Shown here: positions 1 to 11,391 of the stretch, piece by piece
Numbering within the stretch: the first letter of the stretch is position 1
How the letters are laid out: every line of letters begins with the position of its first letter
Source: a virus
Taxonomy: Duplodnaviria > Caudoviricetes
Reading direction: 5' to 3' (one strand)
DNA: 64,000 nucleotides
IMG/VR virus record: IMGVR_UViG_3300013121_000038
Coordinates: 38,312-102,311 of that record
Program-made: the position numbers and the translations under genes
Notes under the pieces: model-generated
What the model was told of the DNA's origin: nothing
Database searches by the model: none
Seen by the model: only the letters and a program-made list of their open reading frames with translations

Positions 1-1410
1 AAGACCTTCTACAACGCTCACGCCTTCCAGCACCACGCGAACAAGGACACCGCACGCGCGTTCGGGGTTCCTGTCGTTTCCGTCCTGAATCCGCGCATGA
101 AGCGCGTCGAGCTCATCATCAAGCTCGACCGCGCGGCGGCGCGCGCCCAGGGCGCCGACGGCATCATCACCCGCATCGACAACGGCGAGTTCCCAGACGT
201 CTCGATGGGATGCAAGGTCCCGTACGACGTCTGCTCGATCTGCGCCCACCGCTCGAAGACGCGGAACGACTACTGCCAGCACATGCGGCCGCCGGAAGAG
301 CTCCGGCACATCTACGGCCCGAACAAGATCCTGCCGGATGGTCGCAAGATCTACGTCATCAACACCATCCCCCGCTTCTTCGACATCTCCTTCGTCTTCA
401 TCGGCGCCGACAAGACGGCCAAGGTGATGGCGAAGCTGGCCTCCAATGGTGCGCATGTCTGCCTGGGTGAAGTGTGTGCGATACCTGCCGGAGCAGGAGC
501 GACTGGGCCTCAACTGTATGGACCCAGCGGCAACCCTCTCGATGTTCGAGACCTTCACAAGGTCGCCTCCGCCTGCGACGACCGGACCGGGCCATGTGGC
601 CGCCGATGCGCTGACTGCTCCGAGCGAGACGCCTGCGAAGAGGAGAAGCTCGCTTCCGCCTTCCATGTGAAGTCGGCCGGCAAGAAGATTGCCGAGATCG
701 TGAAGGACGTCCCAGCCGGTGTCTTCTCGATGAAGCGCCTGCCGGAGATGGAGAAGCGGGAGCCTGACATCTCCCGGGAGGACCTCGACCGGATGTCTGA
801 GCGTCCTCTTGCGTCATCCCTCGGCGCCGCCGCGCGGATGGGGATCGTCCTCAAGCCCCACGAATTCCAGAGGGTTGTGCTCAAGCGGATGGGAGAAGAT
901 GCGCTGATCTCCCACCTCGACAAGCACCACCACGTCTTCCGCGAGGTGCCGGACGCCGGCGAGAGCCTCTCCTGCGACGTCCGCGACCCGCTCGACGAAG
1001 TCTTCGACCTCTTGAAGAAGTACATCCGGTCACGTACCGCTCTTGGACCGTCTTTCCAGATGCGGGTGATGGTGGTCGGGAAGTCGAAAAATGTCCTTCC
1101 CACTAGAACCCCAATCGGCAACTCTCTTCTCGACAAGGTGAGCGCCGCGTACAACAGCTACCGGCGTGGAGTTCTGGAGAAGGTCTCGCAGGTGATCGAA
1201 GAAGTGAAGAGCGACCCAAGGTTGGCGGAAGCGGTTCTCGGAGACGGACTCAGCATGATGTTCAAGACGGCCAGCTCCGAGATCCTCTTTCCCGACTCGG
1301 TGAAGTACATGTTGGGCGCTCATCTGCAAGATCGTGGTCTGCTGTGCAAGTCGGCCGCTGGCGCGGTCGTTCTCGATGACTCGGTCTTTTCGGAGACCAA
1401 CTCGGCCTAG
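1..1410 (+). CDS. Putative prohead (capsid maturation) protease, 5'-truncated
   Basis: Frame is open from base 1 (KTFYNAHAFQHHANKD...). Motifs F-x-HH-x-NKD, DVSMGC-x-V-x3-CSIC...YC-x-H and FFDISFV-x2-GAD resemble phage prohead serine proteases with a Zn-ribbon insert. First gene of the head module. Confidence 0.7.
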   Translation, partial: KTFYNAHAFQHHANKDTARAFGVPVVSVLNPRMKRVELIIKLDRAAARAQGADGIITRIDNGEFPDVSMGCKVPYDVCSICAHRSKTRNDYCQHMRPPEELRHIYGPNKILPDGRKIYVINTIPRFFDISFVFIGADKTAKVMAKLASNGAHVCLGEVCAIPAGAGATGPQLYGPSGNPLDVRDLHKVASACDDRTGPCGRRCADCSERDACEEEKLASAFHVKSAGKKIAEIVKDVPAGVFSMKRLPEMEKREPDISREDLDRMSERPLASSLGAAARMGIVLKPHEFQRVVLKRMGEDALISHLDKHHHVFREVPDAGESLSCDVRDPLDEVFDLLKKYIRSRTALGPSFQMRVMVVGKSKNVLPTRTPIGNSLLDKVSAAYNSYRRGVLEKVSQVIEEVKSDPRLAEAVLGDGLSMMFKTASSEILFPDSVKYMLGAHLQDRGLLCKSAAGAVVLDDSVFSETNSA

Positions 1411-1470
1411 AGGCATCCGCCTCAGAGACGGCCACACCAACCCCTGAAGTACCGAACCAGGAGAAACGAC

Positions 1471-2268
1471 ATGCCGATGGATCCACAGCTCGCTGCCATC
1501 TACGGGACCAACCAGGACGAGAGCGACGTCGAGAAGCTCGCCGCCGCCGAGCTCGCCGAGGAGCTCGCAGACGAGGGCGAGGAGGTCGAGGAGTCCGACC
1601 TCTCCGACGAGGAGGCCGAGGAGCTCGCCCAGCAGCTTCTCGCCGCCGAGGGCGAGGAGGGCGCGGAGCAGGGTGACGAGGAGGACGAGGAGGGCGCCGC
1701 CGTCGAGGAGCCGGGCGAGGAGGAGCAGGAGAAGCTCTCCGAGGCCGACTACCTGGGCCGCGTCATGGCCCACGCCTACACCCAGGAGCTCCGCAAGATC
1801 GCCGCCGTCGGCGACTCCAGCGCCTACGAGGGCAAGGACACCGCGTCCCGCGCCCAGAAGGTCGGCGGCTGGGCTCGTCGTCAGGGCCACCGTGCTGCCG
1901 GCGCCGCCAAGGCCTTCGGCAAGCACTTCAAGGGCGGCGACAAGTGGTCCCTGAAGGGCCAGCACGCCGGCAAGACCTGGGGTGCTCGCGCCGCCGTCGG
2001 TGCGGCTGCCGGTGCTGCCGGCTACGGCGCCTACCGGAAGTTCAAGGGCAAGGGCAAGAAGAAGCAGTCCGCCGCCGAGCCGTCGGCCCTCGACATCCTC
2101 GCCGAGCGCCGCGCGCTGGAGATCCTGGCCGAGAACGGCATCGACCCGACCCAGGAGCAGGAGAAGACCAGCGCCTCCGAGCCCGAGATGGAGGCCCTCG
2201 GCAACGCCGTCGAGCAGCGGGCGTACGCGCTGCTCCAGGCCAACGGCTACATCCAGGAGCAGGAGTAG
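1471..2268 (+). CDS. Acidic scaffold/internal head protein with a central basic Gly-rich cassette
   Basis: Very acidic N- and C-termini, GGAG RBS, located between protease and major capsid; several K-x-[AS] motifs. Confidence 0.6.
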   Translation: MPMDPQLAAIYGTNQDESDVEKLAAAELAEELADEGEEVEESDLSDEEAEELAQQLLAAEGEEGAEQGDEEDEEGAAVEEPGEEEQEKLSEADYLGRVMAHAYTQELRKIAAVGDSSAYEGKDTASRAQKVGGWARRQGHRAAGAAKAFGKHFKGGDKWSLKGQHAGKTWGARAAVGAAAGAAGYGAYRKFKGKGKKKQSAAEPSALDILAERRALEILAENGIDPTQEQEKTSASEPEMEALGNAVEQRAYALLQANGYIQEQE

Positions 2269-2274
2269 CACCTT

Positions 2275-2311
2275 CCTGGTGGGCGGCGGGTACGAGACGC
2301 CGCCCACCAGG
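2275..2311 (+). terminator. 14-bp stem-loop (terminator or mRNA-stabilising hairpin)
   Basis: CCTGGTGGGCGGCG-N9-CGCCGCCCACCAGG immediately after the stop codon; no strong U-tract. Confidence 0.5.
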
Positions 2312-2329
2312 CTGTAGTTCGGAGTGCGC

Positions 2330-2710
2330 ATGCCAGCTTGGATCCACGACAGGGCAGAGCACATCCAGAAGAAGAACCCGTCGATGCCGAAGAGCCAGGC
2401 CTTCGCCATCGCCACGCAGCAGTCGCACGCGACAGGACACACCCCGCAGGGCTACGGAACGGCAGAGGGCAAGAGGAAGGCGAAGAGGAAGTACGACAAG
2501 CCGGCGTCGAGCTACACGCAGACGGCGGACCCTAGCAGCAAGACCAAGTCGAGCGGCCTCAACTTGGTTTTCCTGAAAGGGTTCACAAGCGAGCTTGAGA
2601 AGATCTCAGGCGTGTCTGTGAAGAAGAGGTTGGAGCACCCAGCGGAGAAGCCGTCGGCGACTCCTGAGAACTTTCCACCGCCCCTCGCGTCAGCAGCAGG
2701 GGACAGATAG
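2330..2710 (+). CDS. Small basic head-module protein
   Basis: GGAG RBS before ATG 2330; SQAFAIAT helix motif; FTSELEKIS motif shared with other head-module proteins. Confidence 0.6.
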   Translation: MPAWIHDRAEHIQKKNPSMPKSQAFAIATQQSHATGHTPQGYGTAEGKRKAKRKYDKPASSYTQTADPSSKTKSSGLNLVFLKGFTSELEKISGVSVKKRLEHPAEKPSATPENFPPPLASAAGDR

Positions 2711-2722
2711 GACGGAGATGCG

Positions 2723-4288
2723 ATGAAGACCAAGCTCGCCGGTCACCTGCCACTCCAGGACGCCATCGCGCGGACCATCGAGGAGGCGCGCGAGAAGATG
2801 AAGCTCGCCTCCGATGCCTGCGAGGGGGAGGACAAGGAGAAGGTGAAGAAGCTGGTGAAGTTCGAGAAGAAGGAGCACGGCCACATCCCCTCCGAGAAGG
2901 AGGAGCGGGCCGAGTACGAGAAGAAGAGCTCCATCATCGACACCGACGACCCGGAGGAGGTGGAGAAGCTGGCCGCCTCGCTCGACTTCCTCGCCGAGAA
3001 GATCGCCGGCGACTCCGTCACCATCGGCGGCGAGTCGCGTCAGGGCGGCCAGGTCCTCGCGACCATGAACGCCGTCGGCGGCACCCAGCCCTACAAGAAG
3101 GACTCGTCCAAGAGCCACAACGTGCCGACGTCGACCGGCATGAAGTCGACGAAGGACAACCCAGGCGCGTCCACCGCCGTCCCCACGGACGACGAGCGGG
3201 CCCCTGGCGGCACCGGGGCCAAGTACCCCGCCAAGGGCGTCCTCAAGACCGGCGGCGTGAAGAAGACGGCCATGGACTACCACCAGGCCCGCGCGGTCGG
3301 CCAGGCCGTCGGCCTCGGCACCCATCTCGTGGGCGGCGCCATCGGCTACCAGAAGGGCAAGGAGCAGCACGCCCGAGGCGAGAAGCACACCTTCGGGGTG
3401 CCGCAGGGCGCGGCCGCCCTCTTCCTCCCAGGCGGCGCCGGCTACCAGCTCGGCCGCTACATGGGCCACAACGCGGCCGGCGGCGAGAAGAAGAAGGGGA
3501 AGAAGAAGCACAGCTCCGTCGAGCGGCTCCAGCTCGCGCTGGCAGCCCAGACCGGCATCGTCACCCCGGAGATGGCTGCCGACATGGAGAAGGACGCCGG
3601 CAAGGTCACCGACGCCCTGAAGTCCATGGGCGGCAAGGCGCGCGCCGCCGGCGGCCGCGTCATGGAGCTCCTCAAGGGCGGGAAGTTCGGCGCTGGCAAC
3701 CGCGCCAGCAACTACCGGCCTGGTGCGAGAGGCACCATCCCTTCGAGCGAGGCGTGGAAGTCGCTCGGGACTCGTGCTGCGGCCGGAACGGCTGCCGTCG
3801 TCGGCGGGAAGAAGGCCTACGACAAGCTGAAGAAGAAGGGCAAGAAGAAGGCCGCCGGCGTCGAGGCCGTCGACTACATCCTCTCCAAGATCAGCGCCGT
3901 CGAGAACGGTGGCGAGAGCCCGCAGGGTGGTGAGCAGCTCAGCAACACCGCCCCGGTGCCCTCCAACGCCGGCCGTGAGCTCATCCGGAACAAGGACGGC
4001 ATCAAGAACGTGACCAAGGCCCAGGCCAAGTCCCCTCGCAAGAAGGAGCTGGCCGAGGTCCTGACCGAGCCTGCCATGAGCGCGGCTCACGACTCCAAGG
4101 TCAACGAGAACCTGCGGAACGCCGCGAAGGGCGGCGTGAAGATCGCAGCGGCACGGGTGTTCCTCCAGAAGATCGCTTCGGAGGGCTGCCAGTGCTCTGG
4201 CGCCGGCAAGTGCCGGTTCTGCCAGATGCAGGAGAAGGCTGCCGCACTTCGCGGCAACGGAGCCGAGGCCGTCGCCTCGGAGGCATGA
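2723..4288 (+). CDS. Internal head/scaffold polyprotein with two Gly-rich basic cassettes
   Basis: 521 aa, strong codon bias, internal GGES-x-QGG repeat, C-terminal C-x-C-x5-C-x2-C, many K-x-[AS] motifs. Confidence 0.65.
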   Translation: MKTKLAGHLPLQDAIARTIEEAREKMKLASDACEGEDKEKVKKLVKFEKKEHGHIPSEKEERAEYEKKSSIIDTDDPEEVEKLAASLDFLAEKIAGDSVTIGGESRQGGQVLATMNAVGGTQPYKKDSSKSHNVPTSTGMKSTKDNPGASTAVPTDDERAPGGTGAKYPAKGVLKTGGVKKTAMDYHQARAVGQAVGLGTHLVGGAIGYQKGKEQHARGEKHTFGVPQGAAALFLPGGAGYQLGRYMGHNAAGGEKKKGKKKHSSVERLQLALAAQTGIVTPEMAADMEKDAGKVTDALKSMGGKARAAGGRVMELLKGGKFGAGNRASNYRPGARGTIPSSEAWKSLGTRAAAGTAAVVGGKKAYDKLKKKGKKKAAGVEAVDYILSKISAVENGGESPQGGEQLSNTAPVPSNAGRELIRNKDGIKNVTKAQAKSPRKKELAEVLTEPAMSAAHDSKVNENLRNAAKGGVKIAAARVFLQKIASEGCQCSGAGKCRFCQMQEKAAALRGNGAEAVASEA

Positions 4289-4298
4289 GGAGCTGACG

Positions 4299-4694
4299 AT
4301 GCCCGACAAGATCAGCAACGTCCAGGTCGCCCAGCTCCAGAAGCTGGCGAGCACCACCCTCCGGAAGCTGGCGGGGGAGAACAAGACGCTCCGCGACGAG
4401 AACGGTGACCTGAAGACCAAGGTCGCCGCCTTCGAGAAGAGGGCTCGCGCGGAGAAGATCGCGTCCGAGATGGAGTCCAAGGGGCTCAACCTCGGATCCA
4501 CCTTCGAGCAGAAGGTGGCAGAGCTGCTGGAGAACGACCGACTCGACGTCGTCGAGGAGGCCGTCGGTCTGGCGGCGCCGCAGATCAAGCTCGCCTCCGT
4601 CCACGAGGACGGCGTCGAGGTGGAGAGCACGGGAGACGACGCCGCCGACAGGGCGACGCAGGTCTTCGCAGCAGGGCTCGCCTCCCTCGGCTGA
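4299..4694 (+). CDS. Coiled-coil scaffold-like protein
   Basis: Heptad pattern; GAGGAG RBS; just upstream of the decoration and capsid genes. Confidence 0.55.
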   Translation: MPDKISNVQVAQLQKLASTTLRKLAGENKTLRDENGDLKTKVAAFEKRARAEKIASEMESKGLNLGSTFEQKVAELLENDRLDVVEEAVGLAAPQIKLASVHEDGVEVESTGDDAADRATQVFAAGLASLG

Positions 4695-4747
4695 GGAACT
4701 TCAACCCCACGCTGTAGATCGACACACCCTTCAAGGAGAACACCAAG

Positions 4748-5230
4748 ATGTCCGCACCCAACTTCGAGCTGATCACGGAGCTCCAGGTCACCCTCCGCAG
4801 GGACTTCCCGCTGGCGGTGCCTGGCATCCTCAACCCCATGGACGCTCAGCCCCTCGTCGAGGGCGAGTGGCTGGAGCTGGACGCCAACTACCTGCTGAAG
4901 CGCGGCAGCGTCGCTGGCGGCGGCGTGAACGGGGCAGTCTTCCCGGTCCACACCGAGCGCGGTCGGTACGACACGCAGGCGGTCCAGAAGGCCAACGTCA
5001 TCTTCGCCGGCCAGTACGAGGCCGAGACGAAGATCTTCGACACCGGCGGGACGTACAACCCCGGCACCGAGCTGATGGTCGACGACGTGACCATCGGCGG
5101 CATCGTCCGGCGCGGCCTCAAGCCGGCCACGGCGGGCCACATCGTCGTCGGCCACGTCTCCAAGCTCACCGGCTCCGGCGCGTCGGCGAAGCTCCGCTTC
5201 ATCCACGGCGCCAACTACATGAAGGCCTAA
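4748..5230 (+). CDS. Putative head decoration/cement protein
   Basis: 160 aa beta-rich protein directly upstream of the major capsid gene; AAGGAG RBS. Confidence 0.6.
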   Translation: MSAPNFELITELQVTLRRDFPLAVPGILNPMDAQPLVEGEWLELDANYLLKRGSVAGGGVNGAVFPVHTERGRYDTQAVQKANVIFAGQYEAETKIFDTGGTYNPGTELMVDDVTIGGIVRRGLKPATAGHIVVGHVSKLTGSGASAKLRFIHGANYMKA

Positions 5231-5264
5231 GGCCTAGGCCGACACGAAAGGAACGGAGAAAACC

Positions 5265-6404
5265 ATGAGCGTGCCAGCCAAGGTCCTGAACGACCTGTTC
5301 TTCGAGAAGGTCGCCACCCAGGAGGGCAAGGACAAGATCGCCGAGTTCGGCGGGACGTACATCCGCGACCGACTCCGCGAGGTCTCCTTCGCCCGCAAGG
5401 TCCTCCCCCCGCAGCCCGTCCAGCGGTCCGAGTGCCAGCGGTCCGTCAACCACGACACCCTGGTCAAGATCGTCGACATCGAGCCCAACTCGAAGGCGAT
5501 GGCCATGGGCTTCCGTGGCCAGCCCACGGCGCGCTTCATCCGCGCGCCGCGCTACGAGATCCCCTTCTTCACGATCTCGTCCGAGAAGTTCGAGAAGACG
5601 GAGCAGGAGCTCCTCGCCTACGAGATGCCCATCACCAAGATCATCGAGGAGAACTCGGTGAAGGACATCCAGAGCATCGAGGACCGCCAGTTCCTGCTCT
5701 TCATCGAGGCCGCCGTCCAGGGCTTCCAGACCGACGCGAACGGAGGGGCCACGGCGTTCAACCACACGAACGTCAACGCCGGCTCCGTGAAGTCGGCCTC
5801 CGTGGTGAAGGGTGAGGGCGCCCTCACCGCCACGACCGAGGACTTCACCGTCTACCCCGTCCTCAAGACGGACTTCATCAAGATGAAGAAGCTCCTGCAC
5901 CGCCGGCACCTCCGCGCGGAGCGGATGCTTCTCACCGAGCCGGACTACGACGACATCTCGTCGTGGACCATCCAGGACGTCGGCATGACGATCGCCGGCG
6001 AGACCTCCACCGAGGGCTGGAAGAGCGACACGGTGGTGGGCCTGAAGATCATCCGCACCATCAAGACCGAGATCCTCCGCGAGGGCAACATCTACTGCTT
6101 CACCGCGCCGGAGTTCTGCGGCCGCTTCTACGTCCTCAACCAGACCAAGTTCTACATCGACAAGATCGCGAACCTGATCACCTGGCAGTCGTGGGAGGAC
6201 ATCGCGATCGGCATCGGCAACATCTCGTCGATCGTGAAGATGGAGCTCTACCCCGGCTCCGTCACGCCTGGTGAGGAGACCGCCATCGGCGGCGGCATCG
6301 ACTACCGCGCGGCCCTGCCCGTGGACGAGCTCGACCCGCTCCTCGCCCCGACCAACAACAAGGTCGACCAGGGCCTGAAGTACCCGAACGTCTCCCAGTT
6401 CTAG
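5265..6404 (+). CDS. Major capsid protein (HK97-fold, inferred)
   Basis: 379 aa; IRDRLRE-x-SFARK-x-LPP and ENSVKDIQ-x2-ED-x2-F segments typical of phage capsid proteins; extreme codon bias; followed by a strong hairpin. Confidence 0.8.
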   Translation: MSVPAKVLNDLFFEKVATQEGKDKIAEFGGTYIRDRLREVSFARKVLPPQPVQRSECQRSVNHDTLVKIVDIEPNSKAMAMGFRGQPTARFIRAPRYEIPFFTISSEKFEKTEQELLAYEMPITKIIEENSVKDIQSIEDRQFLLFIEAAVQGFQTDANGGATAFNHTNVNAGSVKSASVVKGEGALTATTEDFTVYPVLKTDFIKMKKLLHRRHLRAERMLLTEPDYDDISSWTIQDVGMTIAGETSTEGWKSDTVVGLKIIRTIKTEILREGNIYCFTAPEFCGRFYVLNQTKFYIDKIANLITWQSWEDIAIGIGNISSIVKMELYPGSVTPGEETAIGGGIDYRAALPVDELDPLLAPTNNKVDQGLKYPNVSQF

Positions 6405-6424
6405 CCATCCGGCCGGGGACAACG

Positions 6425-6467
6425 TGAGGGGAGGAGGAGCCACAACTCCTCCTCCCCTCATCGCTTT
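6425..6467 (+). terminator. 15-bp perfect stem-loop after the major capsid gene
   Basis: TGAGGGGAGGAGGAG-N6-CTCCTCCTCCCCTCA followed by TCGCTTT. Confidence 0.65.
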
Positions 6468-6487
6468 CCAGGGGGTAGGATGCCGCC

Positions 6488-6784
6488 ATGAAGGTCTTCA
6501 ACCTGACCAACCACCCGCTCGACTTCCACGGCCGGGTCATCGCGCCGAACGGCGGCAGCCTGGACTACCCAGAGCTCGACGCCTTCCTGCCGTCGCGTGA
6601 CAAGAAGCTGGAGGAGCTCCGCTACATCGCCTTCGGCTTCCTCCCGACCTGGTGGAAGAAGCAGCAGGAGAAGAAGCCACAGGTGCCGCACAAGCGCGTG
6701 ACCCTCAAGCTCTCGGACGACGTGAAGGTCTTCGACAGCGTCTCGACCAGGACTTCCAGGCACGGGAAGAAGTACCAGGGGTGA
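6488..6784 (+). CDS. Hypothetical protein
   Basis: 98 aa ORF with coding-like codon usage in the operon. Confidence 0.65.
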   Translation: MKVFNLTNHPLDFHGRVIAPNGGSLDYPELDAFLPSRDKKLEELRYIAFGFLPTWWKKQQEKKPQVPHKRVTLKLSDDVKVFDSVSTRTSRHGKKYQG

Positions 6785-6787
6785 GGC

Positions 6788-7006
6788 ATGGCGACCGAAT
6801 CAGCCATCATCCGGATGAGGAAGATCCTGGAGAGCAAGGGCATCTCTCAAGACCTGCTGAAGGACACCCTGATGGTGTACGGCCGTGACTGGCTGCGGGA
6901 AGTAGAGGGTGACGTGGTCGGGGAGGAGGCCCTGGCGGCGCGCCGCACCAAGGCGTTCCGGATGGTCGCTGACTCCTGCCCTGACCTCTTCCCGCTCAAG
7001 GACTGA
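6788..7006 (+). CDS. Hypothetical protein
   Basis: 72 aa, tightly coupled to both neighbours. Confidence 0.6.
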   Translation: MATESAIIRMRKILESKGISQDLLKDTLMVYGRDWLREVEGDVVGEEALAARRTKAFRMVADSCPDLFPLKD

Positions 7007-7554
7007 TGATGGCCGACGACCTCGGATACGGCGCAGCAGGCACCAACCTCCCGGCTCCGTCCATGGAGTCGGCTGAGGGCGTGGTGCTGCCGGCGGCGCC
7101 GACGGAGCTCAACGACTTCGTCAACCAGGTCCGGCTCTTCATGCGGGACTACTCGGAGCTGAACCGCCTCATCGCCGGGGAAGAATCCTCGAACCGCCAG
7201 ATCATGTGGGCCGTCTTGGACGCCCTCGACGATTTCAACACAGACCCGCCCTTCACCCGCTTCAACCTGAACAGCTTCCCGTCTCGCAGCCTGCTGCTAC
7301 GGCTCACCGTCATCTCGCTGCTGGAGTCGATCGGCCTCCTCCAGACGCGCAACCATCTCCAGTTCTCGGACGGAGGCATCCAGGTCGGCATCAACGACAA
7401 GACGCCATTCCTCCAGTCCTGGATCCAGCTCTTCCGTTCTCGCTCCGACCAGAAGAGCCAGCGGCTCAAGGTCGCCTACAACATCGAGGCAGCCTGGGGC
7501 GGCGGCATCCACAGCGAGTACCGCTTCGTGAACAACTTCTACGGAGAATGGTGA
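7006..7554 (+). CDS. Putative head-tail adaptor/neck protein
   Basis: 182 aa helical protein (VRLFMRDY...ALDDFN...FSDGG); position after the capsid gene is typical of adaptors. Confidence 0.55.
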   Translation: MMADDLGYGAAGTNLPAPSMESAEGVVLPAAPTELNDFVNQVRLFMRDYSELNRLIAGEESSNRQIMWAVLDALDDFNTDPPFTRFNLNSFPSRSLLLRLTVISLLESIGLLQTRNHLQFSDGGIQVGINDKTPFLQSWIQLFRSRSDQKSQRLKVAYNIEAAWGGGIHSEYRFVNNFYGEW

Positions 7555-8132
7555 TGCGGCCCAACATCGACTCCTTCTTCGACGAGCTGCTGAACGTCTC
7601 GGAAGAGCTCACCAAGCAGTCGAATGCCCCTGTCCCTACCCCGAAGAAGGTTGGGCTTTCTGGCAAGGGCGCTCTCATCGGTGGCGCTCTCGGCGCCGGC
7701 CTGGGCGGAATCCGCGCCATCGGCCGAGAGACGCACGAGCGTGCGGCTGATGACCGTGCCGGCCTGACCGACGAGCAGAAGAAGGTCCTGAGGAAGAAGC
7801 GTCTCGCCGGTCACGCAGCCAACATCCTGGCCTGGAGCGGCGCAGGCTCTGGCATCGGTAGCCTGGAGCGCAAGGCGCGCGGTGTCGTCGGCGAGGCCGG
7901 AGAGAAGGTGTGGGATTCCATCGACTACGCCCGCGCGCACGCAGACGAGGTCGTCGCGGATGCTCGCAAGCACGCGGACCAGGTCGTCGCCGACGCCCAT
8001 GCCCGCGCCAACCAGACTGTTCACGACGCGCCGAAGAACTTCGTCAAGGGCATCGGTCACGCTGCGGCAAACGCCGGAAAGCGAGTCGGTCGCGGCATCA
8101 AGTCCATCTTCACCAGGAAGCCGAAGGTGTAA
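7554..8132 (+). CDS. Glycine-zipper internal virion protein
   Basis: ATG overlaps the upstream TGA; FFDELL...ELTKQS leader followed by GALIGGALGAGLGG; ARAHADEVVAD tandem repeat. Confidence 0.65.
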   Translation: MRPNIDSFFDELLNVSEELTKQSNAPVPTPKKVGLSGKGALIGGALGAGLGGIRAIGRETHERAADDRAGLTDEQKKVLRKKRLAGHAANILAWSGAGSGIGSLERKARGVVGEAGEKVWDSIDYARAHADEVVADARKHADQVVADAHARANQTVHDAPKNFVKGIGHAAANAGKRVGRGIKSIFTRKPKV

Positions 8133-8141
8133 GGAGCCAGC

Positions 8142-8282
8142 ATGGCCATCGCAGCGTTCAAGGTCGCCGAGTTCAGCACCGCCCTGGATCTCCAGAAGTT
8201 CGTGGCGACTGGGGCGCCCGTCGTTGTCGTCTCCATCGTCTTCAACGGCGCCAGCGGCAAGTACGTCCTGTTCTACACCTAG
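8142..8282 (+). CDS. Small hypothetical protein (46 aa, below the ORF-track cutoff)
   Basis: AAGGAG RBS; MAIAAFKVAEF...KYVLFYT fills the intergenic gap. Confidence 0.65.
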   Translation: MAIAAFKVAEFSTALDLQKFVATGAPVVVVSIVFNGASGKYVLFYT

Positions 8283-8295
8283 CCAGGGAGCGGCC

Positions 8296-8922
8296 GTGGA
8301 CGACCTCACCTTCTATCAGGCGCTGCGCGGTCCAAGGGCCGAAGGCGGCGAGGCATGTCTGCGCTCCCTCATGAAGAAGACTGCCCAGACAACGCCGGTC
8401 AAGAAGCCGATCTCCGTCCAGGACACTCATGCCATATCCAACGACATCCAGGCTCGGATGGCGGAGGTCGTGAAGAGGCTGAAGGCGATCAAAGCCGGCA
8501 AGATCAAGAAGGGCTCGGCCGAGGAAGCGAAGAAGCAGGTCCTCGACCGACTCAAGGCTCATGCTCCTGAGCTCATCGGCGGCGGTGTCGGAACCGTGGC
8601 GGGTGGTCTGTACGGTTATCTTGCGTCCCGCCGCAAGGATCCGAAGAAGCCGTCGGCCATGGAAGAGGACGCCGCCAAGATGCTGCGGGCGTACGAACGT
8701 GCCGAGCAGGAGATGAAGGAAGAGGGCAAGAAGCCAGGCTTCCCGCACAAGATGCGTGGTGTCTACGCCCGTGCCTTCGCCGACGCCTCGAAGGTGATGA
8801 AGGAGCATCCAGTCGCCACCGGCGCGATGTATGGCGGCGCCGCTGGTTCGGCCGGGGCAGGGCTCGGTCGTATCGCCTACGACCTCTACAACAGCAGAAT
8901 CGGAAAGGGCCTCGACGTATGA
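8296..8922 (+). CDS. Glycine-zipper internal virion protein
   Basis: GTG start after GGGAG; LIGGGVGTVAGGLYGY and GAMYGGAAGSAGAGLG zippers; KKTA motif. Confidence 0.65.
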   Translation: MDDLTFYQALRGPRAEGGEACLRSLMKKTAQTTPVKKPISVQDTHAISNDIQARMAEVVKRLKAIKAGKIKKGSAEEAKKQVLDRLKAHAPELIGGGVGTVAGGLYGYLASRRKDPKKPSAMEEDAAKMLRAYERAEQEMKEEGKKPGFPHKMRGVYARAFADASKVMKEHPVATGAMYGGAAGSAGAGLGRIAYDLYNSRIGKGLDV

Positions 8923-10166
8923 ACCACGAAGCTCAACTCGCCAAGACCCTCGGAGACGACGAGCAGGAGAAGCTCGCGTCCCACTTTGCTTCCTACACCG
9001 TCGACGAGCTCGCGTCTCTCCTGAAGGAGAAGACTGCGCTCGCTCCGATGCCTGCTCCTGCGGCGACCCAGGGCGATCTCATGCGTGAGCGCACCAAGGG
9101 CGGGCGGATGATCAACACGCTGAAGAATACCTTCAAGCCGCCAGTGCTGGCGTCGGTGAAGATCGCCGACGAATGGGGCCGGCAGCTAGCGAACGAGGAC
9201 ATCGAGAAGAACGCCTTCATGGATCAGGCGCTCGGCCTCGCCGTCGGTCATCACTATGGCAAGGAGCAGAAGAAGCGTGGCGAGAACTACAGCTTCGGAG
9301 TTCCGCAGGGCGCCGCTGCTCTCTTCCTGCCTGGGGGAGCCGGCTACCAGATCGGCCGCTACATCGGCCACAACGACAAGAGCGTGAAGAAGGGCAAGAA
9401 GAAGAAGGCCAGCGCCCAGCTCGTCTACGAAGCGCTCATGGAGAAGATCTCTACCGGCGCCGTCGGCAACCTCGGCGGCCAGATGCCGAGCCTCACACCG
9501 AAGATGCCGACTGCTCCCAAGGTCGGCGCCGGCAACATGATGCCGCGAATCGGAACGGTCGGAGGTGGCGGGCTCGGCAAGACCGTGACGGGCGCGGCCA
9601 GGCTGCGCGCGGAAATGGACAAGGTGGCCTTCTGGGGCTCCGGCACCATCGCCAAGGGCATCAACTGGGCCGCCCCTCATCTCGCCAAGGCCACCAGCGC
9701 CCTCGCGTCGGCTGGGCCAGGCAAGTCCGCTCTCATCGGCGCCGGCGTGGGTGCTGCCGGCGGTGCCGCGCGGCACGCGCTGTCGGGCAGAGACCCCCAG
9801 ACGGGGCAGAAGCGCACCACCCTGCTAGGTTCCATGGCCGGCGGCGCCGCTCTCGGTGGCGCGGCTGGCGCTGGTCTCAGTGCAGGAGCCAGCCGCTTCC
9901 AGGGCTCTGCGCTGCATGGGCGCATGACCAGCGGCAACTTCAAGTTCAACACCCAGCCTCCGGCTGCGGCCGCAGGAGCAGCCGGCGCCGCCGGGCCGAC
10001 GCCTGTCGCGCAGCCGGCGCCAGTCGGTCCAGGCGGACTGCGTCCGAATCCAGAAGGCGCTCCGGCACACTGGCGAAACGCTCCGCCTCCGCCGGCTGCT
10101 GGTCCTCAGGCAGCCGGTCCACAGCCAACGCCAGTGAAGAAGGGCTGGTTCGGGCTCGGCAGGTAG
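8919..10166 (+). CDS. Multi-cassette glycine-zipper internal virion polyprotein
   Basis: 415 aa; segments delimited by EKLA, EKTA, VKIA, EKNA, KKAS, EKIS and DKVA; shares a cassette with 2723-4288. Confidence 0.65.
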   Translation: MNHEAQLAKTLGDDEQEKLASHFASYTVDELASLLKEKTALAPMPAPAATQGDLMRERTKGGRMINTLKNTFKPPVLASVKIADEWGRQLANEDIEKNAFMDQALGLAVGHHYGKEQKKRGENYSFGVPQGAAALFLPGGAGYQIGRYIGHNDKSVKKGKKKKASAQLVYEALMEKISTGAVGNLGGQMPSLTPKMPTAPKVGAGNMMPRIGTVGGGGLGKTVTGAARLRAEMDKVAFWGSGTIAKGINWAAPHLAKATSALASAGPGKSALIGAGVGAAGGAARHALSGRDPQTGQKRTTLLGSMAGGAALGGAAGAGLSAGASRFQGSALHGRMTSGNFKFNTQPPAAAAGAAGAAGPTPVAQPAPVGPGGLRPNPEGAPAHWRNAPPPPAAGPQAAGPQPTPVKKGWFGLGR

Positions 10167-10169
10167 TCG

Positions 10170-11081
10170 ATGATCCCTCTCGTCACCAAGCTGTGGGTTC
10201 GGTCCTTCAACATGGACCACATGGACGTGTTCTGGGAGATCGGCCCGGTGCCGGCGACCAGCGACACGGCTCCCCACACCATCTTCGACTGCGAGTTCAC
10301 CGTCCTCCGTTCGCAGGCGGCGCTTGGTCCGTACGAGGCGATCAGCTTGCCGTTGATGGACCAGTACCACTTCCGCGACGTGAAGATCTCCCGTCTCCAC
10401 AAGTGGCGGCAGTGGTTCTACAAGCTGAAGGTCACCAACAAGAAGACAGGCGAGGAGAAGGAGTACGGGCCATGCTCCGACGTCGAGCCGGAGCCGGACC
10501 TCATCGCCGCAGAGATCATCCGGCAAGAGGACATGCTCTTCCGGAAGTTCGTGGGTCGACGCTGCTGGCTCCTACCTGTGCGCACCTTCGGCCCTCGCTG
10601 TTCCTGCTTCGACACTACGCTGCAACGGGTCACACGCTCTGCGCATCTGCCGTGCTTCGGCACCGGATGGCTCGGCGGGTACATGCGCCCTGTAGAGGTC
10701 TTCGTCCAGTTCGACCCGAACCCGAAGCGCACAGTGCTTCAGGCCACAGGCGAGATGCAGCCGACGAATGCCTCCGCCAGGATGTCTTCCTTCCCACCCA
10801 CCAGCCCGCGTGACATCATCATCGAGTCGGAAAACCGTCGCTGGCGTGTGGTGAATGTCTCACAAACTCAACGGCTTAGGGCGGCCGTACACCAGGAGCT
10901 CACTCTCCACGAAGTTCCCAAGACAGACGTCGAGTACTCCATCCCTCTCGACGTCGACGCGCGCTCGGTGACTCCGTCCGACGAGGGGAACTTCACGAAC
11001 GCGCAGAACATCGAGAAGCATGGCGACGACTCCGACATTCTCTCGTTCTGGACTGGCAAGGCACGCGGCACTCTTCGATGA
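10170..11081 (+). CDS. Putative head-closure/neck protein
   Basis: RCSCFD...CFGTGWLGGY metal-binding motif and DIIIE...RRWRV beta segment; neck position. Confidence 0.55.
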   Translation: MIPLVTKLWVRSFNMDHMDVFWEIGPVPATSDTAPHTIFDCEFTVLRSQAALGPYEAISLPLMDQYHFRDVKISRLHKWRQWFYKLKVTNKKTGEEKEYGPCSDVEPEPDLIAAEIIRQEDMLFRKFVGRRCWLLPVRTFGPRCSCFDTTLQRVTRSAHLPCFGTGWLGGYMRPVEVFVQFDPNPKRTVLQATGEMQPTNASARMSSFPPTSPRDIIIESENRRWRVVNVSQTQRLRAAVHQELTLHEVPKTDVEYSIPLDVDARSVTPSDEGNFTNAQNIEKHGDDSDILSFWTGKARGTLR

Positions 11082-11391
11082 GATCGAGAAGATCTCCGAA
11101 GAGGCGCACGTGATGCAGCCGGCTCCAGTTGCGCCCAAGAAGAAGCCGAACTGGAAGAACGTCCTCAAGGCTGGTGCCGGCTACGCACTCGGTGGCGCGG
11201 CCGGCTACGTCGGCGGCATGGCAGCAGAGCGCGGGCTCGCGCACGTCTTCAGGAACAAGTGGCCGTCGATGACGCCTGAGCAACGGTACAAGGTGCTCTA
11301 TCCGGCTCTCGGCGCCGCGACCGTCGGCCTCATGGCAGTGAACCACGCCTCCCAGATTCGCCGTCAGCAGGCTCTGGAGGGAGATGAGTGA
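11020..11391 (+). CDS. Small glycine-zipper internal virion protein
   Basis: ALFDEIEKIS leader followed by GAGYALGGAAGYVGG. Confidence 0.6.
   Translation: MATTPTFSRSGLARHAALFDEIEKISEEAHVMQPAPVAPKKKPNWKNVLKAGAGYALGGAAGYVGGMAAERGLAHVFRNKWPSMTPEQRYKVLYPALGAATVGLMAVNHASQIRRQQALEGDE

Follow-up and report, generated by a model that had tools for sequence, protein, structure and literature searches.

A head-specific Lys-x-Ala/Ser motif as a candidate recognition code of a T4-type prohead protease in a tailed phage

The head module and its protease

We analysed a 64,000-nucleotide stretch of phage DNA (the window; G+C 60-67%), bases 38312-102311 of the single 102,311-bp virus record IMGVR_UViG_3300013121_000038, and in particular its head module at window 1-11391, where a short motif, K-x-[AS], recurs in the head proteins and bounds small basic cassettes. 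Among the genes of the record are those for a terminase, a capsid protein and a 1107-residue sheath protein, one that matches a portal weakly, and a long run of small genes on the minus strand; gene calling by codon usage, with a caller made for the analysis, yielded 145 genes. The capsid protein has 170 relatives in IMG/VR, and the 80 that were retrieved, at 59-89% identity, are the relatives used for the site-conservation counts below. Among their contigs are five complete genomes, 193-210 kb long and bearing terminal repeats, so the record represents about half of a phage genome of ~200 kb. The only cultured relatives, Salmonella phage Arash (OQ632216) and three Vibrio phages, have capsid proteins about 30% identical to that of the record. 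Gene order in the module runs from core proteins to the protease, further core proteins, a scaffold-like protein and the capsid protein, and we read the phage, with fair confidence, as a large myovirus and the module as its prohead-core and maturation system.

The window opens at residue 96 of a 564-residue protein whose gene (genome 38027-39721, plus strand) starts 284 nt upstream, the C-terminal 469 residues being encoded at window 1-1410. A preliminary description of the window had called this gene a protease, and fold, PHROG match and conservation all agree. In an AlphaFold model built from 25 orthologues (predicted local distance difference test, pLDDT, 67; confident for residues 40-230), the catalytic domain spans residues 47-229, ending at about window 402, and is followed by a helical tail; these residues align to T4 gp21 (5jbl_A) with a Z of 9.7 and a root-mean-square deviation of 3.0 over 134 of 165 residues, the next structural entry reaching a Z of 5.4. 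Foldseek against the PDB was weak (gp21 at E 0.12), and the match became clear only after VIA re-alignment. Matches in BFVD comprise phage G gp19, PaBG, phiRSL1 and entries named prohead serine protease, and PHROG 18299, 'head maturation protease', is matched at E 2e-8. The candidate catalytic residues H106, H107 and S163 are invariant in the 25 orthologues and conserved in Arash gp222. As judged from the model and these matches, the gene most likely encodes a serine prohead protease of the T4 gp21 fold. It belongs to a large environmental clade that comprises about 1750 protein clusters, all labelled hypothetical. A complex prediction from two alignments, one of protease residues 40-245 and the other of the N-terminal 60 residues of the core protein at window 1471-2268, scored 0.02; it was run without controls and weighs neither way.

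The catalytic domain also contains an invariant C-x-x-C ... C-x-H cluster (C173, C176, C187 and H189; window 232-282), present in Arash gp222 as well, which from its sequence looks like a small zinc knuckle. To our knowledge T4 gp21 has no such knuckle, and the window protease differs from gp21 in its length of 564 residues and its long helical tail, too. The protease genes of relatives L022, L055, L071, L072, L006 and L011 (proteins P0022 and P0089) carry intein-like inserts with homing-endonuclease motifs (Pfam Hint_2, Intein_splicing, Hom_end_hint and LAGLIDADG_3), and the proteases with such inserts have 900-1170 residues compared with about 565.

A Lys-x-Ala/Ser motif in the head proteins

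Translation confirmed each of the ten motifs and four cassettes quoted in the preliminary description, which had also proposed a comparison of the head module with the tail genes. We made this comparison by shuffling residues within each protein, so that composition was preserved (300 shuffles for the window). The proteins of window 1-11391 hold 71 copies of K-x-[AS] compared with 54.2±6.4 after shuffling, a count reached in 3 of 300 shuffles, whereas the sheath, tube and fibre proteins at window 11384-35000 are depleted (29 observed, 42.3 shuffled); genes past window 35000, which lie mostly on the minus strand, show no enrichment of the motif. The form with a preceding hydrophobic residue, hydrophobic-x-K-x-[AS], has 27 copies in window 1-11391 versus 12.1±3.4 (0/300), and E-K-[ILVT]-A has 8 versus 0.6. 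For K-[ILV]-A-[ASG] the head proteins have 20 copies where 2.2 are expected (z 11.6). Variants with Arg or Glu in place of Lys, and the reversed motif, stayed flat in the head proteins under the same shuffle test. The T4-type [LI]-x-E (z 1.1) and the phiKZ-type [SAG]-x-E (z 0.4) were not enriched in these proteins either, both values being motif statistics and not enzymology, and neither was the assemblin-type [VLI]-x-A-[SA] (z 0.9).

The logo of the motif reads [D/E]-[L/M]-x-K-[I/L/V]-A-[A/S/G]. Its Lys is found at residues 6-32 in 13 of the 27 head-set proteins and in 10 of 118 others (Fisher p 7e-6), and about eight proteins carry F-x-D-E-L-x-K-I-[AS] or near variants; a short shared N-terminal leader ending in the motif, as in the T4-type capsid-targeting sequence, is thus present in the head set. 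Each complete relative genome has 3-6 exact coding strings for D-E-L-x-K-I-A and none for the reversed control pattern. In many proteins conserved sites persist while the flanking sequence changes among relatives. Column-wise tblastn underestimates this conservation in Gly/Lys-rich regions, in which sites shift by a few residues, and for this reason the family of the 1471-2268 protein was counted by anchoring on two conserved blocks, which gave 40 distinct orthologues. A Pfam scan of all head proteins found no family above the cut-offs.

Enrichment peaks in the genes directly upstream of the window. The gene at genome 36083-37027 has 6 sites (1.0 expected) and that at genome 37014-38030 has 5 (1.4 expected), and this pair (genome 36083-38030, window -2228 to -281) probably encodes the main shredded core or scaffold proteins. 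A second cluster surrounds the weak portal match at genome 9326-16612 (14 sites, 6.2 expected), where several small proteins start with F-x-D-E-L-x-K-I-A. The motif system therefore extends past the coordinates of window 1-11391.

The protease itself has seven copies over its full length where 1.6 are expected, at residues 26 (upstream of the window), 238, 280, 472, 487, 515 and 543. Site 26 is conserved in 25/30 relatives, site 238 in 40/45 and site 472 in 46/48; the first two flank the catalytic domain, and site 238 is also conserved in Arash gp222. Five of the seven lie within low-confidence segments of the model, which are probably flexible. T4 gp21 is activated by a self-cleavage that removes nine N-terminal residues (PMC9958956), whilst in phiKZ and SPN3US it is the C terminus that the protease trims from itself (PMC5694885), so that motif copies flanking the catalytic domain are what this class of enzyme would lead one to expect.

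Core proteins, basic cassettes and neighbouring genes

The 265-residue core protein at window 1471-2268 (plus strand) is built of four segments, a layout that its 40 orthologues retain. A leader of residues 1-24, in which D-x-E-K-x-A at residue 20 is invariant in eight aligned sequences, is followed by an acidic segment (residues 25-111, charge -30), by cassette 1 (residues 112-200, window 1804-2070), with a charge of +16 and 43% Gly+Ala, and by an acidic, helical C-terminal segment (charge -10). In 39 of the 40 orthologues a K-x-[AS] comes after the first conserved anchor; their cassettes range from 28 to 159 residues and are net positive in 29/30, and in most of them KK-x-[SA] stands 0-9 residues ahead of the C-terminal anchor. 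The ESM Atlas model of the protein is of low confidence (pLDDT 0.44), and when the Atlas was searched for structures resembling cassette 1, none that bears a name scored above 0.82.

The second core protein, at window 2723-4288 (plus strand; 521 residues), shows in the alignment of relatives conserved ends around a variable central slot. V-E-K-L-A at residues 80-84 is kept in 33/34 relatives and L-Q-K-I-A at residues 481-485 in 64/67. In the window the slot holds cassette 2 (3272-3514, charge +8) and cassette 3 (3599-3856, charge +17); in relatives it holds 0-2 cassettes of differing kinds, each between K-x-A sites. After the last L-Q-K-I-A comes a four-Cys knuckle, C-x-C ... C-x-x-C (window 4178-4285), which relatives retain and of which L026 and L036 have two; cutting at that last site would free it as a peptide of ~36 residues. 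Cassette 4 (9216-9413, charge +8) belongs to a third protein, encoded at window 8919-10166 (plus strand), whose translation gives 415 residues with three motif sites, the cassette and then a Gly/Ala/Pro-rich low-complexity tail.

All four cassettes are in frame, and each opens directly after K-x-[AS] and closes with KKK-x-[AS], in agreement with the preliminary description; the slot that varies among relatives belongs to one gene, 2723-4288. Cassettes 2 and 4 are 73% identical over 48 residues (E 6e-21), which is the sole similarity between their host proteins and lies within the motif boundaries, and from this sequence likeness they are taken to be paralogues. Comparison of their cores shows 11 synonymous and 13 non-synonymous changes of codon, with a ratio of non-synonymous to synonymous substitution rates (dN/dS) of 0.33 at a dS of 0.55. 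A core shared by otherwise unrelated hosts and under such selection suggests that the peptide is constrained and has moved as a unit. The same type of cassette is found in relatives L020 and L012, and cassettes 1 and 3 are about 38% alike.

The preliminary description had proposed that the cassettes are membrane-active glycine-zipper peptides or DNA-binding peptides, and the membrane proposal fares poorly. Cassettes 1, 2 and 4 have one to two GxxxGxxxG strings, but a Kyte-Doolittle hydropathy of 1.2 is reached by no 19-residue segment in the host proteins of cassettes 1-3 (1471-2268 and 2723-4288) or within cassette 4; genuine membrane segments in other parts of the genome lie at 1.8-2.8. 'Glycine zipper' is accordingly a description of composition and not evidence of membrane insertion; the cassettes are basic and Gly/Ala-rich and, as far as predictions go, probably disordered.

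A comparable arrangement, in which the motif stands out most plainly, exists in phage Arash, whose gp218-226 contain 41 motif sites where 9.1±3.0 are expected (z 10.5), compared with 11 sites (9.3 expected) in the flanking RNA polymerase, helicase and tail genes. Arash gp222, annotated only as 'structural protein' in a paper that mentions no protease, is 41% identical to the window protease over the catalytic domain (E 3e-43) and on this sequence evidence is its orthologue. The two systems share orthologous protease and capsid proteins, the same motif, at a higher density in Arash, and motif-bounded basic Gly-rich segments, of which gp224 has three, separated by the motif. They differ in that the Arash cassettes lack the poly-Lys tail, the conserved element in gp221 and gp224 being the Gly-rich stretch, and in that the Arash genes are listed simply as structural proteins. 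Arash gp220-225 appear in the virion proteome table; the virion preparation also contains ribonucleotide reductases and other non-structural enzymes, and the supplement consists of gene and protein tables without peptide lists. Arash is the closest cultured system and not a described mechanism.

Further head genes, of which those at 2330-2710, 4299-4694, 5265-6404, 7554-8132, 8296-8922 and 11020-11391 lie on the plus strand, mostly carry the motif, in several settings. A 126-residue protein (2330-2710, from translation) has a conserved N-terminal domain and an internal, leader-like S-E-L-E-K-I-S site (residues 89-93), which is kept as D-E-L-x-K-I-A in 12 of 13 aligned relatives. The protein of genome 12085-12777, whose N-terminal domain matches PHROG 16160 (E 9e-18), resembles it in having an internal D-E-L-x-K-I-[AS] tag after a conserved N-terminal domain of 60-90 residues; in both, the piece ahead of the tag may be a functional product in its own right. 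The scaffold-like coiled-coil protein at 4299-4694 (131 residues, weak match to PHROG 18653), present in 74 relatives, has three motif copies where 0.57 are expected (p 0.02), two of them within its first 25 residues. Directly upstream of the capsid gene, window 4748-5230 encodes a 160-residue protein that is found in 80/80 relatives, with no motif copy and no family match, and that may be a decoration or capsid-accessory protein. The major capsid protein itself (5265-6404, 379 residues) matches the PHROG 2522 major head protein (E 5e-11), is 30% identical to that of Arash and has F-E-K-V-A at residues 13-17; a further motif copy at residue 298, inside the fold, is kept in 80/80 relatives.

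Three further proteins, identified by translation, combine a motif near the N terminus with Gly-rich stretches. The 192-residue protein at 7554-8132 has a 23-residue acidic leader (F-F-D-E-L ... L-T-K-Q-S) ahead of a basic body of charge +13 that includes a glycine-zipper stretch. It alone matches Pfam Gly-zipper_Omp (PF13488), and it does so below the cut-off (14.1 bits versus 25, E 0.046); the cassette proteins gave no match to this family. That at 8296-8922 (208 residues, start codon uncertain, only three relatives found) has M-K-K-T-A at residues 26-30 and two Gly-rich stretches. In the 123-residue protein at 11020-11391 the leader ends in F-D-E-I-E-K-I-S (residues 19-26) and precedes a basic body in which two stretches are rich in Gly and mildly hydrophobic; the leader is kept as D-E-L-x-K-I-[AS] in 4/4 relatives, which supports the long start at 11020. 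Gly-rich stretches with a borderline hydropathy of 1.25-1.5 occur in 7554-8132, the tail of 8919-10166, 11020-11391 and the upstream gene at genome 37014-38030, and over the head set GxxxGxxxG is about threefold denser than elsewhere (27 in 7216 residues versus 26 in 23605). Among these leader-bearing genes lies a 46-residue open reading frame (window 8142-8282) with one strongly hydrophobic stretch (hydropathy 1.71), found in two relatives only.

A prohead-core reading and its alternatives

The general mechanism is known from T4, phiKZ and SPN3US, and what would be new here is the recognition code. The T4 prohead core (gp21; gp22, gp67 and gp68; IPI-III and Alt) resembles the window in its protease fold, in a protease gene that lies beside core, scaffold and capsid genes, in short leaders that end in the protease motif on unrelated proteins, in multi-copy scaffold-type proteins, in a motif copy near the N terminus of the protease and, as predicted here, in basic products that are retained. 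However, T4 cuts after Glu in [L/I]-x-E, whereas the signal here centres on Lys-x-Ala/Ser, and the basic pieces of the window are embedded between acidic segments of polyprotein-like genes and are not encoded by separate small genes. Herpesvirus assemblin and the HK97-type proteases belong to a fold class related to that of the window protease, although in HK97-type phages it is essentially the capsid protein and the protease that are processed, and no group of cargo proteins bearing a tag. Either bond in K-x-A|S has a precedent, since assemblin cleaves between Ala and Ser and HK97 gp4 on the C-terminal side of a Lys in the delta domain of the capsid protein. In adenovirus, the virion protease acts at a short motif inside the capsid and releases small, very basic DNA-condensing peptides from the core precursors pVII and pX(mu); the likeness is by analogy only, the adenovirus enzyme being an unrelated cysteine protease from an unrelated virus lineage and its peptides having no Gly/Ala-rich stretch. 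Further parallels are phiKZ (gp175), 201phi2-1 and SPN3US (gp245), large myoviruses that, like the window phage, encode their own RNA polymerase and that have multi-motif propeptides on head and ejection proteins and a self-processing protease (PMC5694885, PMC10052503). Their enzymes differ in cutting after Glu ([S/A/G]-x-E, A-x-E), as do all studied T4/phiKZ-type prohead proteases (PMC5694885), and their propeptides mostly have 111-254 residues, compared with 12-30 for many in the window.

The motif is specific to head proteins, lies near N-termini or domain boundaries, is conserved as far as Arash and is present on the protease itself, and in these respects it behaves as a protease processing or targeting signal. 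We hold with good confidence, on sequence grounds, that it is such a cleavage or targeting code; most likely, the T4-type head protease that the phage encodes would use hydrophobic-x-K-x-[AS] both as its cut site and as a tag for loading. The overall reading, in which a prohead core of the T4 kind works with another recognition code, we put at a probability of about 0.62. From the motif statistics, the conservation, the protease fold and the modular layout observed above we infer the steps of cutting, packaging and function as follows. The protease most likely recognises [D/E]-[L/M/I/F]-x-K-[I/L/V/T]-[A/S]-[small], and the motif would serve in three ways. On unrelated proteins it would end a short N-terminal leader, F-x-D-E-L-x-K-I-A or looser, which, by analogy with the T4 capsid-targeting sequence, may load the protein into the assembling core and then be removed. 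Many copies in the scaffold-type proteins and in the protease tail would allow these to be reduced to pieces small enough to exit the shell. In the polyprotein-like core proteins, finally, the motif would mark the boundaries at which acidic helical segments alternate with basic cassettes of 60-90 residues. The acidic pieces would most likely leave the shell after cutting, whereas the basic ones would most likely remain on the DNA as internal peptides comparable to T4 IPI-III and exit together with it at infection; taken by itself, the retention of the cassettes as DNA-associated internal peptides is a tentative proposal. As to the bond, we lean slightly towards a cut after Lys, which is favoured by the hydrophobic residue at P3, as in T4, and by Lys-to-Arg changes at the capsid site. 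A cut after Ala or Ser, suggested by the strong Ala and the small residue that follows, as in assemblins, is the lesser prospect.

Several observations weigh against this reading. The protease has no Pfam family at E 0.05, and its profile found no chain among PDB sequences at E 1. The preliminary description had pointed to a motif at the capsid N terminus; F-E-K-V-A is indeed there and was considered as a maturation cut, but it is kept in only 14 of 80 relatives, all close ones, and the others read Q-K-L-D-S or Q-R-L-D-T yet keep the motif elsewhere. A flip from acidic to basic composition, likewise claimed for the motifs in general, holds at the sites that open cassettes and not overall, the charge step over 53 sites averaging -0.09 compared with +0.21 at random positions. 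When counted by alignment column, the opening sites of cassettes 2 and 3 are retained in just 0/27 and 1/32 relatives, the KKK-x-[AS] at the cassette ends lacks the hydrophobic residue of the consensus, and the cassette proteins taken singly are not significantly enriched (p 0.10-0.14), enrichment being collective. In Arash, the proteome coverage of 80-100% for gp220-225 speaks, at face value, against full removal of propeptides. The case for cleavage in the window phage, moreover, is one made from sequence and models.

These points bear differently on the other explanations. The high coverage in Arash would suit a motif that is an uncut docking helix, binding scaffold, portal or shell while any proteolysis takes place elsewhere; so would a leader that conserves residues beyond a minimal protease site (F-x-D-E-L) and copies that lie in confident helices (protease residues 472 and 487) or in the capsid fold (residue 298). 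Yet no alternative T4-, phiKZ- or assemblin-type motif is enriched, copies at both edges of the catalytic domain and 5-7 per scaffold-type protein are better suited to shredding, and processing of head proteins at a short motif is common to every studied relative of this protease fold (PMC5694885), which leaves docking without cleavage improbable. That composition or helical bias alone generates the motif density could be argued from head proteins that are helical and rich in Lys, Ala and Leu, and from several single sites that are unconserved. At the level of these sequence tests this origin was rejected, since composition-preserving shuffles within each protein still leave z values of 4.4-11.6, the control motifs are flat and the pattern recurs in Arash; we give it almost no weight.

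The other alternatives accept the cut code and concern the fate of the cassettes. The released cassettes could be membrane-active glycine-zipper peptides, acting as an ejection channel or as host-membrane effectors, instead of DNA-associated peptides, and the raised GxxxGxxxG density of the head set, the borderline hydropathy of leader-bearing proteins outside the four cassettes and the Gly-rich stretch conserved in Arash gp221 and gp224 all point that way. The cassettes themselves, with charges of +8 to +17, hydropathy below the transmembrane range, a low-confidence model for 1471-2268 and no Pfam glycine-zipper family above cut-off, make it unlikely. We rate as equally doubtful that the cassettes are disposable, charge-balancing scaffold linkers that pair with the acidic segments and are then degraded or expelled. 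Their predicted disorder, their wide variation in length, number and sequence (28-159 residues, 0-2 per large protein) and the position of the host proteins next to protease and scaffold, that of the T4 core genes, would fit such linkers, whereas positive charge and boundary motifs kept in nearly all 40 orthologues, purifying selection on the core of cassettes 2 and 4 and the detection of Arash cassette proteins in virion preparations argue against them. More speculative still, and in our view quite unlikely, is that the K-x-A-bounded slot is a plug-in site at which a widespread clade of ~200-kb phages swaps small basic peptides, to be loaded into the capsid, freed by the protease and injected along with the DNA to act on the host membrane or nucleic acids; if so, it would be a protease-released peptide arsenal and not mere scaffold or DNA counter-ions.

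Returning to the prohead core with a Lys-centred code, the Lys-x-Ala motif, its use across ~1750 protease clusters and the motif-bounded cassette slot appear to be undescribed in the literature that we searched. Recognition of Lys-x-Ala instead of Glu would, if true, broaden what is known of the specificity of these enzymes. Annotation would gain a simple rule by which head-internal and ejected proteins could be recognised in the genomes of this clade, and a cultured phage, Arash, would have its so far unannotated protease identified as gp222. Finally, the layout of polyproteins with alternating acidic and basic segments and a variable slot suggests a way in which small basic peptides may be rendered harmless, loaded and released inside a capsid.

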